A stretch of DNA of 64,000 nucleotides from Acinetobacter phage Ab15, in sequence record PP763259.1; one strand, written 5' to 3'. A program made the position numbers and the translations under genes. The notes under the pieces are model-generated. The model was given only the letters and a program-made list of their open reading frames with translations. It was not told where the DNA came from and did not search any database. The stretch's first letter is position 1; each line of letters opens with the position of its first letter. This document shows, piece by piece, positions 16,501 to 22,905 of this stretch.

Positions 16501-19272
16501 TTATTGACAGTTATCACATTCTTCATGTCGCTTAATATCACCAGATCCCCTCATAGAGTAGATGTAGTATAAAGCTAAGATACCTGCATTTTCCAAAGCA
16601 TATTTGTGAACCTTCATAATATACTCTGGAGTGTCATTACTTGTAAAATACAAGTTGATTGACTGTTGCTGATCAATATATTGTTGTCGTTGTGCACACA
16701 AATCCAAATGTTTGATCATGTCAATCTCAAAGGCAGTTCTAAAGACATCCTTCTCATGCTGAGTCAACCAGTGAACATGTTGTACAGAACCTTTATGCTT
16801 ATTGATGTCATTGATTACGTCTTCATTGTAAACACCACGTTCCTTCATGATCTCTAGAAGGACCTTATTAACCCTCCAGATATCTCCTCCAGCACTCTGC
16901 TTAACGAACACCATAGCAACATCTAAACCAATACCTTCAGAAGCACCAGCCATAATCTCTGCTGTTGACTTTGTAGGTGGCATCATCATCGTTGTTGCAT
17001 TACGGATTCCTAAATGAGCGCACCCTTCAGGCATACCAACTTCACGAGCCAACCACTTAGAAGCAGCTAAGGTTTGATCTCTCATACCCTTAAAGATTTC
17101 TTCATTTAACCAGAAGCTCTCAAGGCTACCTACCACAATTCTACGTTTTTGTAGTAGTGTGTGGAAACCTAATACACCTGTACCAACTGCACGGAATCTC
17201 TTGGTGAAGGCTAAGATTTTTCTAAATGCCAAGGCATCCTCTTTACCTTGCTTAGTTCGGTTTTCCATAAACTCGATGTAGTCACTCACATTACAATCTT
17301 GCATTACATGTGCAATAAATGCTAAGTGAGGACATCTCGATTTCCACTCATCGTATAAGTCAAGGTTCAAGTTCAGAATTACACAAGAGAATGTATGCTT
17401 CTCATCACTACCAAGTAACACTTCTTGGCAATTCATAGTATTCAAACCATTGAACATCAACATGTTACGTTTTGGCTCAAGTGCACAATATGTATCATCA
17501 AATCTTCCTTGGTCGATCACTTCATCAACACATACAAATCTTTCAGCAGAACGTTGAGGTTTTCTTTCACTCCATTTTAGGCGGTGTGTTTTTAAACCTA
17601 ACTGACTCAACTTAAAGAGACCTGTACTCGATACAAGAAGACGATAAGCATCTTGGCATTCAAACAGTCCTTTATCACCCGTACCATTATTGAGAGGTAA
17701 TTCTTTTAGACCACCTACATCCCTCAAGACAACCTTTGAAGAAACACCAAGTGTTTGTAACATCAATTGCACATCTTGTAAGAATGTCTTGTGAATGCTT
17801 ACCACTTGGATAGATTCATTTTCACCATTACGAGCAATAGTTCCATCTGAATCTAGGAGTCCAGCAAACCATTCCAATCGGCTTTCAACAGTGTACTCAG
17901 ATGTTGGTACAAAGAATTTATCCTTAAGTCCTTCACTGTGAGTAAGCTTAATACGATCACCACCTTGAAGTCCTGACACTGAAGAAACGCAAGTTATATT
18001 TTCAAGTAACTCCTTCTTCTTACCATACAAGTATGTGTGTTTTTTACCTTTGTATTCAAAACCATCACCAGTGAAGAATCCATTAGTGTAAGCATGTTCG
18101 AGGGTCTTGTCACCTAAAATAACTGGTAGATCAAATTTAGATAGTCGATCACCAGACTTCAACTCGTAGGCACGTTTAATGACCTCATTGCCATCCTCAC
18201 CAACAACCTTAAAGCGGTGATACTCTGTGCAATCTAATTCATACCCTGAATCAGTTACCACTTTAACTAACTTCTGATTTTCACCAGTTTTGATAATTGT
18301 CACTTCAGACCATTCAAAACCATTCCACACCTCGACCTGTTGTCCCTCAAGGTCAGAAATCGTTTGATATCCACTTTTAGTTAAGATTAATGTCTCAGGT
18401 GAAACACACAAATTAGAAGCTTTCGCTGTCATACCTGCATCTTTAAATGCCTGAGCTAAGTGGCGGTTCATTTCATCAATCTTAGTGAAGTAACCCTTAC
18501 CACGTTGCATCTTGATAGCAATAGCTTTAGCTAATAGGGCAACTGCTTCTGGGTCATCCTTGACTAACTTCTCAATGTACTCGTCCTTACATAACCATGC
18601 TGGGTTATTACTTTCAGGTCGTTTGAATAAGTACTTTAAAACTTCCTCAAACTCGGGATGTTCAATACTTACAGCATAAGATAAACTACCTCTACGGCTA
18701 CCTTGAACAACCTCATCCATACAGTTGATTAAGTCACGGATAAGAGGCATAACCCCACCACTGTAACCACCACGAGGTAGTTTCTTACCTTTATAGGCCC
18801 AATCATCAATTGAGTAAGATGTACCATGTGAGTGCTTAGTTAGGATAGCTGCTTCAGTCACACAATCATAACGAGAGAACAAGTCATCACCAACATAACC
18901 GCTAGCACAACTTACTGTTGATCCCCTTTCAGGTAAACCACTGTTCGCCAATAAAGGAGTTGAACAAGACACATAACCATCCCAAAGTACGTCAAAAAAC
19001 ACCTCCTCCCAAGTTTTACCAGCCGTATAAGTATCCACATTCCACCAAGAAGGGTACTTATCTGGTGCATGTTTAGCTAAAGTCTTAGCAATCATTTTAT
19101 AGCGAGCTTTTACAGTCTCACCATTCCACGAATACTTTTCAAAGAACAACTGAGTCCCACCAGTGGTAAACCATTTAGGGATCTCTCCATGTTCTTGTAG
19201 TTTTTTTCGAAGTTGACTGTAACTGTCAACCCCGTATAATTCCAATGTCTCTAAATAAGATAAAACAGCCAC
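16501..19272 (-). CDS. nrdA: ribonucleotide reductase class I alpha subunit, intein-containing
   Basis: Motif LANSGLPERG. The catalytic SNL-C...C-QEVLL site is split by an insertion. A C-terminal CDNC pair is present. 923 aa including a 326-aa insertion. Confidence 0.85.
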   Translation of the reverse strand: MAVLSYLETLELYGVDSYSQLRKKLQEHGEIPKWFTTGGTQLFFEKYSWNGETVKARYKMIAKTLAKHAPDKYPSWWNVDTYTAGKTWEEVFFDVLWDGYVSCSTPLLANSGLPERGSTVSCASGYVGDDLFSRYDCVTEAAILTKHSHGTSYSIDDWAYKGKKLPRGGYSGGVMPLIRDLINCMDEVVQGSRRGSLSYAVSIEHPEFEEVLKYLFKRPESNNPAWLCKDEYIEKLVKDDPEAVALLAKAIAIKMQRGKGYFTKIDEMNRHLAQAFKDAGMTAKASNLCVSPETLILTKSGYQTISDLEGQQVEVWNGFEWSEVTIIKTGENQKLVKVVTDSGYELDCTEYHRFKVVGEDGNEVIKRAYELKSGDRLSKFDLPVILGDKTLEHAYTNGFFTGDGFEYKGKKHTYLYGKKKELLENITCVSSVSGLQGGDRIKLTHSEGLKDKFFVPTSEYTVESRLEWFAGLLDSDGTIARNGENESIQVVSIHKTFLQDVQLMLQTLGVSSKVVLRDVGGLKELPLNNGTGDKGLFECQDAYRLLVSSTGLFKLSQLGLKTHRLKWSERKPQRSAERFVCVDEVIDQGRFDDTYCALEPKRNMLMFNGLNTMNCQEVLLGSDEKHTFSCVILNLNLDLYDEWKSRCPHLAFIAHVMQDCNVSDYIEFMENRTKQGKEDALAFRKILAFTKRFRAVGTGVLGFHTLLQKRRIVVGSLESFWLNEEIFKGMRDQTLAASKWLAREVGMPEGCAHLGIRNATTMMMPPTKSTAEIMAGASEGIGLDVAMVFVKQSAGGDIWRVNKVLLEIMKERGVYNEDVINDINKHKGSVQHVHWLTQHEKDVFRTAFEIDMIKHLDLCAQRQQYIDQQQSINLYFTSNDTPEYIMKVHKYALENAGILALYYIYSMRGSGDIKRHEECDNCQ
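17431..18408 (-). mobile_element. intein with LAGLIDADG homing endonuclease domain, at the catalytic Cys of nrdA
   Basis: Starts CVSPETLIL (block A), has TEYH (block B) and two LAGLIDADG-like blocks (YTNGFFTGDG and FAGLLDSDGT). It ends ...NTMN followed by Cys +1. Removing it restores SNLCQEV. Confidence 0.7.
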
Positions 19273-19282
19273 AAATACCTCC

Positions 19283-19789
19283 TTACTTACTTCCTTGTAA
19301 TCCTTTATTCTCTTCTGAATCTTCCATGATCAGCTTCAAGAGTTCTTCTTGTTCCTCTTGTTCTTTCTTCCTCATATTATTCCAAGCTTCTACAAACATA
19401 GCCTCAGACCAGTTACTTTCATACTCTCGGTTTTGACCCTTAGTGAAGAAATCTGGCATCTGGTAACCGTATGTATTTAAGTTAAACATCTTAGCCACTT
19501 TAGAATCCTTCTGAGTAACTTGAAACTCTTTAGGGATTTTATCTACAGGAACCTGCAAACGAGTCAAGAAAGTAAAGATTCGGAAGCGCACAAAATCAAT
19601 GTACTCGGCTGTTGTATACCCATTAAGTGAACCTGAAGGGATTGCCATATCAATGATTCGCTTCTCATGCTCTAACACGTAGTGGCAAGCTTGTAGTAAC
19701 TTTCCAAACATTTCTTCATGCTCATGTAGAGGTTTCCCTACTTCATGGAAATAGGTGTTAAAATGTTCTGCGGCGTAAATTCCATGCAA
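19283..19789 (-). CDS. nrdB: ribonucleotide reductase beta subunit, exon 2
   Basis: Begins LHGIYAAEHF..., which completes the DEDLH iron-ligand motif. Downstream EYIDFVRFRIF matches the R2 QYIEFVADRL region. Confidence 0.6.
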   Translation of the reverse strand: MHGIYAAEHFNTYFHEVGKPLHEHEEMFGKLLQACHYVLEHEKRIIDMAIPSGSLNGYTTAEYIDFVRFRIFTFLTRLQVPVDKIPKEFQVTQKDSKVAKMFNLNTYGYQMPDFFTKGQNREYESNWSEAMFVEAWNNMRKKEQEEQEELLKLIMEDSEENKGLQGSK

Positions 19790-20237
19790 CATGGGTTGTT
19801 CAGGTGTGCTCGTTACACACACCCCGTAGAGTACTTCACCACTCAAGTACTCACAGCTTACACTTTCATGTAAGATCAGACTATATCATCACCACAAGGT
19901 TTTACTTGTTGTGGTGCTTCCCACTTCGGTCTTACTTAAGACCTACTCCCCGAAGGGATAGTCGTTGAGGATTCTAAACCTAATTCCAACCACAAAGCTT
20001 TCCAACGTTTTTTATGCCTAATTAACGAAACATATCTAATGTATCCAGAAAATTTTGGATGTTTAAATTTTTCCATAATTACCTCCATAATAAGAGGTTG
20101 GAATTAGGTTTAGCTTTCCTGCTGATTGCCCAATACTTTAGATTTTTACTCAGTGTTTAAATTTTTCAACACTTCAGTACTAAAGTCTCTAAGGGGTTTC
20201 CAGCATTTCAAGAAGTTTATTGAGGACTTGCAAATTA
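19790..20237 (-). mobile_element. group I self-splicing intron (ORF-less) in nrdB
   Basis: P1 pairs exon GAGGAU with IGS GUCCUC and has U.G at the splice site. P10 pairs UGCAA with exon-2 UUGCA. P7 pairs GACUAU with AUAGUC. The intron ends in G. The spliced frame reads DEDLH. Confidence 0.65.
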
Positions 20238-21002
20238 ATCCTCATCTAGTGCACTCTGGTTAGCAATTTGGGCAATAACTTTAATTAAGTTAAAACCATT
20301 TGTCTGGAAGCTCTTAAGGATAGCAAAACTAGAGAACAACAAAGCTGTCTCTGTTAAAGAGAAGCACAAGCATGCAAGCATCTTGTTTTCATCTCGCATT
20401 AAACCATCTAACCATTCCATACGTTCATTGAGTACAGGGTCATCAATGTATGATGTGTAGTAATCATCAGTATCTAGTCCAAGTACAATGTTAATCTCAT
20501 TGTACGTTCGTGCATGGACCATCAACTCAATCATTGCTAAAGCAGAAGCACCAGCACGGGATTCATGTCGAGGGAATACTTTAATGAATAATCCATTCCA
20601 GAATTCATCACCAACAATTAATTCATACTGTAAGAATAAGTGTAGAACTGTTTTTACTGCATGTAGTTGCTCTTTAGTTAGCACATACTCAAGTTCCATC
20701 TGGTCATTCTTGACTTCCATTTCACTCTTAAACCACATCTGCTCTTCAAGCTGCTGGTCAGCAATCTCAAGAATCTTTGGGTACTTAATCTCATAGCCAC
20801 TATTGGGTGATGTAATACGGGTTTGCACTAATCCAGTTTTCTCTGAATTTAATGTTTTGTTTATTGTCACATAAACGAATTTCCCTTCAGGGTTTTTCTC
20901 ATCCTTGACATTGATGATAACCTTTCCAGCCGGTGGTGGTAAAAATCTAATCTTCTCAACCTGACCTTCGGTTAAATCCACCTCAATATTAATTTTAGAC
21001 AT
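20238..21002 (-). CDS. nrdB: ribonucleotide reductase beta subunit, exon 1
   Basis: The R2-like N-terminal 255 aa (FSLTETALLFSSFAIL) correspond to the E204 helix. The ORF-track stop TAA at 20235-20237 lies inside the intron. Confidence 0.65.
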
Positions 21003-21558: not shown

Positions 21559-21983
21559 ATAGTCTCCTTATGAATTGTTTACATAATATGTAGGGATGTT
21601 ATCTGGCACCTCTACAAGTTGAAGGTATTGTAGTATGAATTAAATTTATAAAACACCCCACACCTTTAGAAATTCTTAAAAGTTTACCTTGTTTGGTTGT
21701 TTGTTAAACACAACACAAAATAAAGGTAGAACCTAGAGGTTATCTTTAAATTTGTCACTAGGGGAAATCCTTCAGGGAATAAAAAAGGGCACCACCTTGA
21801 AGTAGTGCCCTAAAAAGTACCCTAGGGAATATTAATATATTAACCCCTGAGGAAAATTTTTTAAGTATCCTCTTATATTTATAGTACCCCAAAAAGTCAT
21901 TTTGTCAAGCTAAAACCATGCCAATTAATCATTGGAAATTTCGATTAAAAATTAAATATTAGTAAATTCTGTAAAAAATACAT

Positions 21984-22066
21984 CAGACCGATTTGATCAA
22001 ATGCATTTTTTAAAAGTGAAAATAACCAGTTCAAAATGGTTTTAACCAGACCGATTTGATCAAATG
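21984..22066. repeat. two exact 20-bp direct repeats CAGACCGATTTGATCAAATG, each containing the 12-bp palindrome ATTTGATCAAAT (with GATC)
   Basis: Copies at 21984-22003 and 22047-22066. Confidence 0.7.
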
Positions 22067-22112
22067 TTCTAATAAGGTAATAAATAGGGTTTTAAATATG
22101 TTTCTTTTTAAG

Positions 22113-22139
22113 TTGACAGAGAAAAAATTTTTTTATAAA
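22113..22139 (+). promoter_or_regulatory. sigma70-like promoter
   Basis: TTGACA at 22113-22118 and TATAAA at 22134-22139, in an AT-rich context upstream of the 22189 gene. Confidence 0.4.
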
Positions 22140-22188
22140 GTTATCCACATCCAAAGATGGTTGATTGGTATAAGTAAGGAGAATTTTT

Positions 22189-22905
22189 ATGTTTAAAGGT
22201 TTTTTAACAGATGTAGCAAAAGAAGCTGGTGTTGGTCCTGCAATTCTTTTAAATCAGTTGCACCAATGGGTTAAGTCTACTGGAAACCAGAAGATTTACC
22301 GTTCTAATGCTCAATTATCTGAAGACCTTGATGGAGTTCTTTCAGTAGCAGCTATTCAACGTCATAAGGTAAAACTGATTGAATGTGGATACATTATCGT
22401 TTCTCACGATAAAGGAACTATTCGTACTACTACTTACCAATTAACTGAGAAAGCTTTGAAATCTTTAGGTGCTTTCTTTGACAAAGCTAAAGACAAAGTT
22501 AAACAAGCCTTCCAACCTAAAAAACCTAAACAACAAGTTCCAGCACAACCTAAAGAGGAACCAGTAAAGCAAAGCACTGAGAAACCAACCTCTATGGAAG
22601 AAGAGTTTAAGAAAGCTGGTCAAGAACGTAAGGACCTCCCTAGAGGTTGCCCTAAAGAACTTCTTAAAGGTATCTTTATGAGTGCTAAGAAAGAAGAGGA
22701 AAAACAAGAAGATGTTGTTTATGAGGACAATTCTGAAGAGTTATTTGGAAAGAAATTCGAAAGTGAAGACTTGAGTGATGAAGAAATCTTTGATAAAATG
22801 AGTAAAACTCTTGGTGGTTTATTTAAGACTATCCCTAATGTGGATAAAAGAAATTCAAACCTTCAATCTATGACTAACTTTGGTAACTTTCGAGAAGAGT
22901 ACTAA
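22189..22905 (+). CDS. hypothetical early protein with a central basic/acidic low-complexity region
   Basis: 238 aa. RBS AAGGAG. First gene of the forward early block. Confidence 0.5.
   Translation: MFKGFLTDVAKEAGVGPAILLNQLHQWVKSTGNQKIYRSNAQLSEDLDGVLSVAAIQRHKVKLIECGYIIVSHDKGTIRTTTYQLTEKALKSLGAFFDKAKDKVKQAFQPKKPKQQVPAQPKEEPVKQSTEKPTSMEEEFKKAGQERKDLPRGCPKELLKGIFMSAKKEEEKQEDVVYEDNSEELFGKKFESEDLSDEEIFDKMSKTLGGLFKTIPNVDKRNSNLQSMTNFGNFREEY

Follow-up and report, generated by a model that had tools for sequence, protein, structure and literature searches.

What interrupts the gene for the ribonucleotide reductase (RNR) alpha subunit of Acinetobacter phage Ab15, and can the enzyme be expected to work despite the interruption? 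Within the 64,000-nucleotide stretch of this phage that we analysed (sequence record PP763259.1; hereafter the window), nrdA is a 2772-nt open reading frame (ORF) with a GTG start, on the minus strand, whose 923-aa translation holds 326 extra codons in frame (residues 289-614). A preliminary description made from the letters alone had read this insert as an intein placed in the SNLC motif, whose conserved Cys is the thiyl-radical site of RNR (PMC2677866). Locating the motif strings in the translation showed its coordinates and junctions to be exact to the base (Table 1), and profiles, an empty allele, the predicted fold and homologous inteins all support its reading. We put the probability at roughly 0.9 that the insert is a true intein of class 1 that has been mobile recently and contains a LAGLIDADG homing endonuclease in frame, situated directly N-terminal to the thiyl-radical Cys of a class Id-like RNR alpha subunit and belonging to a widespread allelic family of phage inteins.

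An insert with intein features at the active site of NrdA

The precursor reads AGMTAKASNL / CVSPETLILTKS ... NMLMFNGLNTMN / CQEVLLGSDEKH across the two junctions, which divides it into an intein of 326 aa and two exteins summing to 597 aa. A natural allele without the insert occurs in Acinetobacter phage Mithridates (MW316731), whose nrdA, annotated as 1794 nt, is 95-96% identical to that of the window in the extein nucleotides and matched only 65% of the window gene, as two pieces. Pairwise alignment of the two genes contains one gap of exactly 978 nt. The uninterrupted site of Mithridates reads ...GCTTCTAATTTGTGTCAGGAAGTGTTACTT... and is translated as KASNLCQEVLL. Therefore, the possibility raised in the preliminary description that the insert is a normal domain of some NrdA clade is ruled out, and the boundaries of the insert are fixed. 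The sole ambiguity is trivial and concerns which Cys codon belongs to which side.

The insert matched the profile of the N-terminal splicing region of inteins (TIGR01445, intein_Nterm) with 36.6 bits against a cut-off of 24.5 in NCBIfam, and that of LAGLIDADG_3 (PF14528) with 44.5 bits against a cut-off of 22.5 in Pfam, the latter at residues 177-229. Weak NCBIfam matches to several intein-containing archaeal proteins were also found. Because these cut-offs were passed and a natural allele lacks exactly those 978 nt, the motif pattern of the insert is not due to chance. All motifs named in the preliminary description are present, namely block A (CVSPETLIL), block B (TEYH) and two LAGLIDADG-like motifs. 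Of the features of a class 1 intein, the insert has a nucleophile at position 1 (Cys1, where Ser or Thr would also serve), Thr-x-x-His in block B, a C-terminal Asn (Asn326, where Gln or Asp would also serve) and, as the +1 nucleophile, Cys, where Ser or Thr would serve as well. Where inteins typically, though not obligatorily, have a penultimate His (position G:6), the insert has Met325, as had been noted before. Since about 5% of functional inteins do without this His (Mills, Johnson and Perler, PMC4031507), its lack does not exclude membership.

Structure comparisons point the same way. The nearest solved protein by sequence was PI-PfuI, the RNR intein of Pyrococcus furiosus (1DQ3, E-value of 1.6 × 10−4), in an alignment that spans block B and both LAGLIDADG motifs, with motif 1 opposite GFIAGDG. 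A protein homologue search with the intein gave 31 matches, mostly truncated metagenomic fragments, which served as the alignment for structure prediction; the AlphaFold (AF2) model, built on 20 sequences, reached a mean predicted local distance difference test (pLDDT) score of 92.5 and a predicted template modelling (pTM) score of 0.91. Its best matches in the Protein Data Bank (PDB), found with Foldseek, were all endonuclease-bearing inteins: TliVMA, PI-SceI, PI-PfuI, PhoVMA and intein homing endonuclease II (2CW7). These were followed by the free LAGLIDADG enzymes I-DmoI and I-Tsp061I, which matched the endonuclease part, and by the Ssp DnaB mini-intein. Like PI-PfuI, PI-SceI and TliVMA (fold probability 1.0, template modelling score about 0.6), the Ab15 intein would be a bifunctional splicing and endonuclease protein, but these three share only 12-17% identity with it and, at about 430-454 aa, have extra DNA-recognition or stirrup regions. 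They also have the canonical penultimate His. As modelled, the splicing domain adopts the HINT fold. In the endonuclease domain, beta sheets follow each of two helices (residues 106-115 and 174-188), in agreement with the alpha-beta-beta-alpha-beta-beta-alpha repeat of two-motif LAGLIDADG enzymes. Asp188, one of the two putative catalytic residues, is nearly invariant in the homologue alignment. The domain thus has the predicted structure of a two-motif monomeric LAGLIDADG homing endonuclease, which would be expected to cleave DNA.

With the insert removed, the host protein matched TIGR02510 (NrdE-prime; profile positions 2-558 of 560) in one unbroken stretch with a score of 405.5 bits, which does not reach the equivalog cut-off of 602 bits. 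Its nearest structures were 6DQW and 6DQX, the latter a class Id NrdA (PMC8350387), and the spliced extein aligned with 6DQW without a gap through the active site (asnlcqevll / ASNLCSEIML), so that these intein-free relatives lack the insert as well. The extein has no ATP cone. By sequence, it is a minimal class Id-like alpha subunit that is a diverged relative of TIGR02510 and not an equivalog, and not an E. coli-type protein. The earlier comparison of the restored SNLCQEVLL with E. coli NrdA needs this one refinement; the restored motif is that of Mithridates (ASNLCQEVLL). The name nrdA is correct in the broad sense. Records of sister phages label the gene for the 597-aa extein 'class Ia', despite its proximity to TIGR02510, 6DQW and 6DQX.

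A widespread family at one insertion site

We determined how far the intein family extends by a tblastn search of 50,697 phage records, from which the range was taken, as the 31 protein matches added little to it. The intein matched 335 records, nearly all at RNR alpha genes. Six Acinetobacter phage records matched over the full length at 98.5-98.8% identity. Identity was 51-55% in Vibrio (PG07, eugene, helene, ICP1), Aeromonas and Rheinheimera phages, about 48% in Pectobacterium phage phiTE and in Staphylococcus and Salicola phages, about 40% in Corynebacterium, Proteus and Salmonella phages, about 30% in Caulobacter and Brevundimonas phages and about 26% in SPbeta-like phages of Bacillus.

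Twelve homologous inteins of 26-55% identity were fetched and aligned with that of the window, giving a set of 13. All 12 homologues are inserted at the same point, right after (S/T)NL and before a Cys, and their host genes, which come from phages that are not related, encode alpha subunits of classes Ia and Ib and of the Id-like type. This position at the thiyl-radical Cys is the most frequent one for contiguous RNR inteins (Dassa et al. 2009, PMC2677866). The allelic inteins of ICP1 nrdA, Pectobacterium phiTE/CB7 NrdA (described in PMC7344957), Vibrio PG07/eugene, the Rheinheimera Barba phages and Salicola SCTP-2 are 48-55% identical to the Ab15 intein over its whole 326 aa. They share its HINT domain and in-frame two-motif LAGLIDADG domain, as well as Cys1, TxYH, DTYC in block F and NG(I/L)xT in block G. 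They differ in ending with Gly-Gln instead of Met-Asn, and several of them reside in class Ia NrdA proteins that bear an ATP cone, whereas the Ab15 intein sits in a 597-aa class Id-like extein. The inteins of Bacillus SPbeta/phi3T bnrdE and of CcrColossus NrdA occupy the same site with recognisable homology, but they are far more diverged (26-32% identity). Two further systems resemble the Ab15 intein by their descriptions. The split NrdA inteins of marine metagenomes share the integration point, 'directly N-terminal to the ... thiyl radical active site' (Dassa et al. 2009, PMC2677866), but are split and accompanied by free-standing endonuclease genes. The RNR intein of Chilo iridescent virus (CIV), which resides in a eukaryotic virus, splices well with a C-terminal Gln (PMC4031507), the residue found in many of the relatives here.

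Within the aligned set, Cys1, Thr B:7, His B:10 and Cys+1 are invariant, which bears out the block residues that had been picked out in the Ab15 intein (Cys1, Thr61 and His64). Position F:4 is Cys in 12 of the 13 and Asp in phi3T. Thr occupies G:5 in 12, and every intein of the set has an aromatic residue (Phe, Tyr or Trp) at B:12. The penultimate residue is never His; it is Gly in 12 inteins and Met in the window intein alone, so the lack of His singled out earlier is a trait of all 13 and only the Met is specific to the lineage. The last residue is Gln in seven and Asn in six, followed in either case by Cys, which fits the Asn and Cys+1 first noted for Ab15. The block F position often occupied by His in relatives varies between His, Gly and Asn, and is Asn315 in the window. 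A non-His G:6, Cys at F:4 (the second most common residue there among inteins) and a C-terminal Gln are not new, because each is reported in PMC4031507. Inteins of class 3 can do without an N-terminal nucleophile. The class 3 signature consists of Trp B:12, Cys F:4 and Thr G:5 (PMC5222942). Filing the intein under class 3 by its Cys F:4 and Thr G:5 was rejected, as Cys1 is invariant and B:12 is Phe, not Trp.

Of the 12 full-length inteins, 11 retain the acidic residues of both LAGLIDADG motifs. The exception is Caulobacter phage CcrColossus, which retains the endonuclease domain with both residues replaced (Ala, Gly). In Ralstonia phage RSL2, the family is represented by a 139-aa mini-intein that lacks an endonuclease domain. 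Judged from their sequences, these two appear to be members of one intein family at different stages of endonuclease decay. Upstream of its intein, the nrdA of phiTE is also interrupted by an HNH-containing stretch, and in Corynebacterium phage Darwin an HNH gene adjoins nrdA and a second RNR gene is annotated 'ribonucleotide reductase + intein'; RNR genes of these relatives thus bear several mobile elements at once. Annotation of the family is uneven. The ICP1 and CcrColossus records annotate their RNR inteins, ICP1 as 'intein-containing ... precursor', and a Staphylococcus phage record gives its intein-bearing ORF no name beyond 'hypothetical protein'.

Spread among Acinetobacter phages and the proposed splicing route

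By its nrdA, the window belongs to an Acinetobacter baumannii myophage of the group of AM24, YMC13/03/R2096 and Herod, of which Mithridates is a member as well; over this gene, nucleotide identity to the window is 94.7-98.6% in the group (98.6% for Herod). We compared divergence in the intein with that in the exteins among five intein-bearing phages, namely Ab15 as represented by the window, Herod, AM24, Bestia and YMC13/03/R2096. Nucleotide divergence was 0.2-1.1% in the intein versus 1.5-10% in the exteins (Fisher p-values down to 3 × 10−17), and synonymous divergence (dS, Nei-Gojobori) was 0.009-0.024 versus 0.07-0.38. Because dS is counted at synonymous sites, the difference is a matter of age and not of stronger constraint: the common ancestor of the intein copies is 10-20-fold more recent than that of the exteins. 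The low divergence of the intein suggests a recent horizontal spread.

The codons next to the insertion site may record how the intein arrived. In AM24 and Bestia, all seven codons abutting the intein upstream (18409..18429) are changed at the third position, reading ACT GCT AAG GCA TCA AAC TTA where the window, Herod, YMC13/03/R2096 and the empty Mithridates site have ACA GCG AAA GCT TCT AAT TTG in common. Downstream (17425..17430), all intein-bearing alleles read TGC CAA and the empty allele reads TGT CAG. These clusters of synonymous changes on both flanks are probably co-conversion tracts from the intein donor and, along with the low dS of the intein, lend the presumed homing indirect support.

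As judged from the conserved residues, the intein should be able both to splice and to cleave DNA, most likely by the standard class 1 pathway, each chemical step of which is assumed here. Once the 923-aa precursor has folded, Cys1 would undergo an N-S acyl shift aided by Thr61 and His64, after which the N-extein would be transferred to Cys+1. Cyclisation of Asn326 would then free the 326-aa intein without a penultimate His, as would have to happen in the 12 compared relatives, and an S-N shift would link ASNL to CQEVLL, yielding a 597-aa alpha subunit with its active site intact. The free intein, with Asp115 and Asp188 as putative catalytic residues, could cut an intein-less nrdA such as that of Mithridates during co-infection, and repair from the intein-bearing copy would install the intein together with short flanking tracts.

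Several observations weigh against a fully working intein. Intein_splicing (PF14890) stayed below its gathering score in Pfam (27.3 versus 35.8 bits), and no intein C-terminal model matched the insert in the Pfam and NCBIfam scans, so the profile check called for in the preliminary description succeeded for the N-terminal splicing region and the LAGLIDADG domain but not for the C-terminal part. Met at G:6 is unique to the Acinetobacter lineage among the compared sequences and Asn replaces the block F His kept by many relatives, because of which the splicing of the Ab15 intein may be impaired or slow. In the comparison of the five phages, dN/dS was raised in the intein (about 0.2-0.5, from 7-11 substitutions per pair) relative to the exteins (0.02-0.09). 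Purifying selection on the exteins was considered as proof of splicing and rejected: since most extein divergence predates the spread of the intein, it does not prove that the RNR works after invasion. Taken at their strongest, these points would describe an intein that is real by descent and now decaying, with a C-terminus (NGLNTMN versus NGILTGQ/N) and a lost block F His that cripple splicing, leaving the alpha subunit largely dead and the phage reliant on the host RNR. The RNR genes of Campylobacter phages, overrun by mobile elements and apparently degenerating (PMC3653736), offer a precedent. We nevertheless hold such a defect to be unlikely. None of the three nucleophiles is lost, the TxxH motif is undamaged, and the catalytic positions are identical in all five Acinetobacter-phage copies; in the six Acinetobacter-phage records that matched over the full length, the 978 nt contain neither stop codons nor frameshifts, and the dN/dS, though raised, is below 1. 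Moreover, many phage groups have retained the family although none of the 12 relatives has His G:6 and the block F His is missing from several of them, and splicing is known for other inteins that have no His G:6 (PMC4031507).

Equally improbable, in our judgement, is that this RNR intein family is not plain class 1 and that its chemistry varies: Cys308 could act as an alternative branch nucleophile, giving a second, class-3-like branch route, or could form a disulfide with Cys1 or Cys+1, in which case active RNR would be freed only under reducing conditions. The combination of Cys F:4, Thr G:5, an aromatic B:12, no His G:6 and often Gln G:7 partly mimics the class 3 Trp-Cys-Thr set, for which a role of Cys F:4 has been described (PMC5222942, PMC4031507), and three cysteines in one splicing centre, at the future thiyl-radical Cys, could be the setting for either route. 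If there were a disulfide switch, it would place the deoxynucleoside triphosphate (dNTP) supply of the infected cell under post-translational control, and the Met G:6 specific to the Acinetobacter phages could tune the splicing rate. However, the invariant Cys1 defines class 1, Cys is a common F:4 residue in general, the Trp B:12 that is important in class 3 splicing is Phe here, and the +1 residue of class 3 inteins is usually Ser or Thr. That the insert is no intein at all, and instead a lineage-specific accessory domain of an RNR clade, has only its in-frame state in its favour. We regard this as refuted by the 95%-identical orthologue without exactly these 326 codons, the intein and LAGLIDADG profile matches and intein fold, the occurrence at one site in alpha subunits of classes Ia and Ib and of the Id-like type from phages that are not related, and a dS in the insert that is 10-20 times below that of the host gene. 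A genuine class 1 intein with a homing endonuclease thus best explains the locus.

Table 1. Features of the intein-bearing nrdA gene, in window coordinates.
Feature	Position	Strand	Description
nrdA precursor ORF	16501..19272	-	923 aa; predicted class Id-like RNR alpha subunit without ATP cone, intein inside
N-extein	18409..19272	-	Residues 1-288, up to KASNL; aligns with first half of TIGR02510 and with 6DQW through ASNL
Intein	17431..18408	-	326 aa; predicted HINT splicing domain split by LAGLIDADG homing-endonuclease domain
Cys1 codon, block A nucleophile	18406..18408	-	Invariant in 13 homologous inteins
Block B, TEYH	18217..18228	-	Thr61 (B:7), His64 (B:10), then Phe66 at B:12
LAGLIDADG endonuclease domain	17599..18111	-	About residues 100-270; from model secondary structure, PF14528 and Foldseek
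LAGLIDADG motif 1, NGFFTGDGF	18058..18084	-	Residues 109-117; putative catalytic Asp115
LAGLIDADG motif 2, FAGLLDSDGTI	17836..17868	-	Residues 181-191; putative catalytic Asp188
Blocks F and G, DDTYCALEPKRNMLMFNGLNTMN	17431..17499	-	Cys308 (F:4), Asn315, Thr324 (G:5), Met325 (G:6), Asn326 (G:7)
Cys+1 codon	17428..17430	-	First C-extein residue; conserved Cys of SNLC motif
C-extein	16501..17430	-	Residues 615-923 and stop codon; TIGR02510 positions 260-558

The neighbouring nrdB intron and the meaning of the locus

The adjacent nrdB gene is interrupted as well. It is split by a group I intron (RF00028 in Rfam, 54.9 bits, 19857..20271, minus strand), and by alignment the insert is an ORF-less 448 nt (19789..20236, minus strand) that leaves the gene as two ORFs (20235..21002 and 19283..19846). 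The interruption falls between SALDED and LHGIY, which we take to be the second Glu-x-x-His metal-ligand motif of R2. With the intron removed, the partner NrdB has 423 aa. Mithridates, AM24 and Bestia have no intron at this place, whereas that of Herod is 126 nt shorter than in the window and that of YMC13/03/R2096 is 408 nt longer (856 nt), with an HNH endonuclease ORF annotated in the record between the two nrdB pieces. This polymorphism looks like a snapshot of a homing cycle. From the sequence, both RNR subunit genes of Ab15 appear to be interrupted at catalytic motifs by elements that splice themselves, which parallels SPbeta, whose nrdE intein and co-occurring RNR-gene introns are a classic case as cited in PMC3653736.

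Beyond nrdB and a 158-aa ORF, Herod and Bestia have a free-standing gene on the minus strand annotated 'HNH homing endonuclease / putative DNA-binding protein', at the equivalent of about 21600..22200 in the window. The list of window ORFs of at least 150 aa contains no minus-strand ORF at that place, where the alignment is messy, and the window, like Mithridates and AM24, may be without this gene. No additional intein turned up when ten other large ORFs of the window were compared with Pfam.

The intein of Ab15 is an ordinary find, as its kind, site and family are all already known. The GenBank record of YMC13/03/R2096, whose gene is 97% identical, lists 'intein_Nterm' and 'LAGLIDADG-like domain' in a note, and the intein copy carrying these domain notes is 98.8% identical. 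In the literature on the AM24, YMC13/03/R2096 and Herod group we found no description of this intein, only of a terminase intein in the related phage TaPaz. The value as a discovery is small, since this is the commonest RNR intein site and homologues are annotated in ICP1, CcrColossus, SPbeta relatives and phiTE/CB7. Its practical value lies in annotation and phylogeny: because most sister Acinetobacter records name the gene simply 'ribonucleoside-diphosphate reductase' with no mention of an intein, the intein has to be removed before RNR-based trees are built. For the biology of these phages, the group amounts to a tidy natural homing experiment, with intein-plus and intein-minus nrdA alleles and four states of the nrdB intron.

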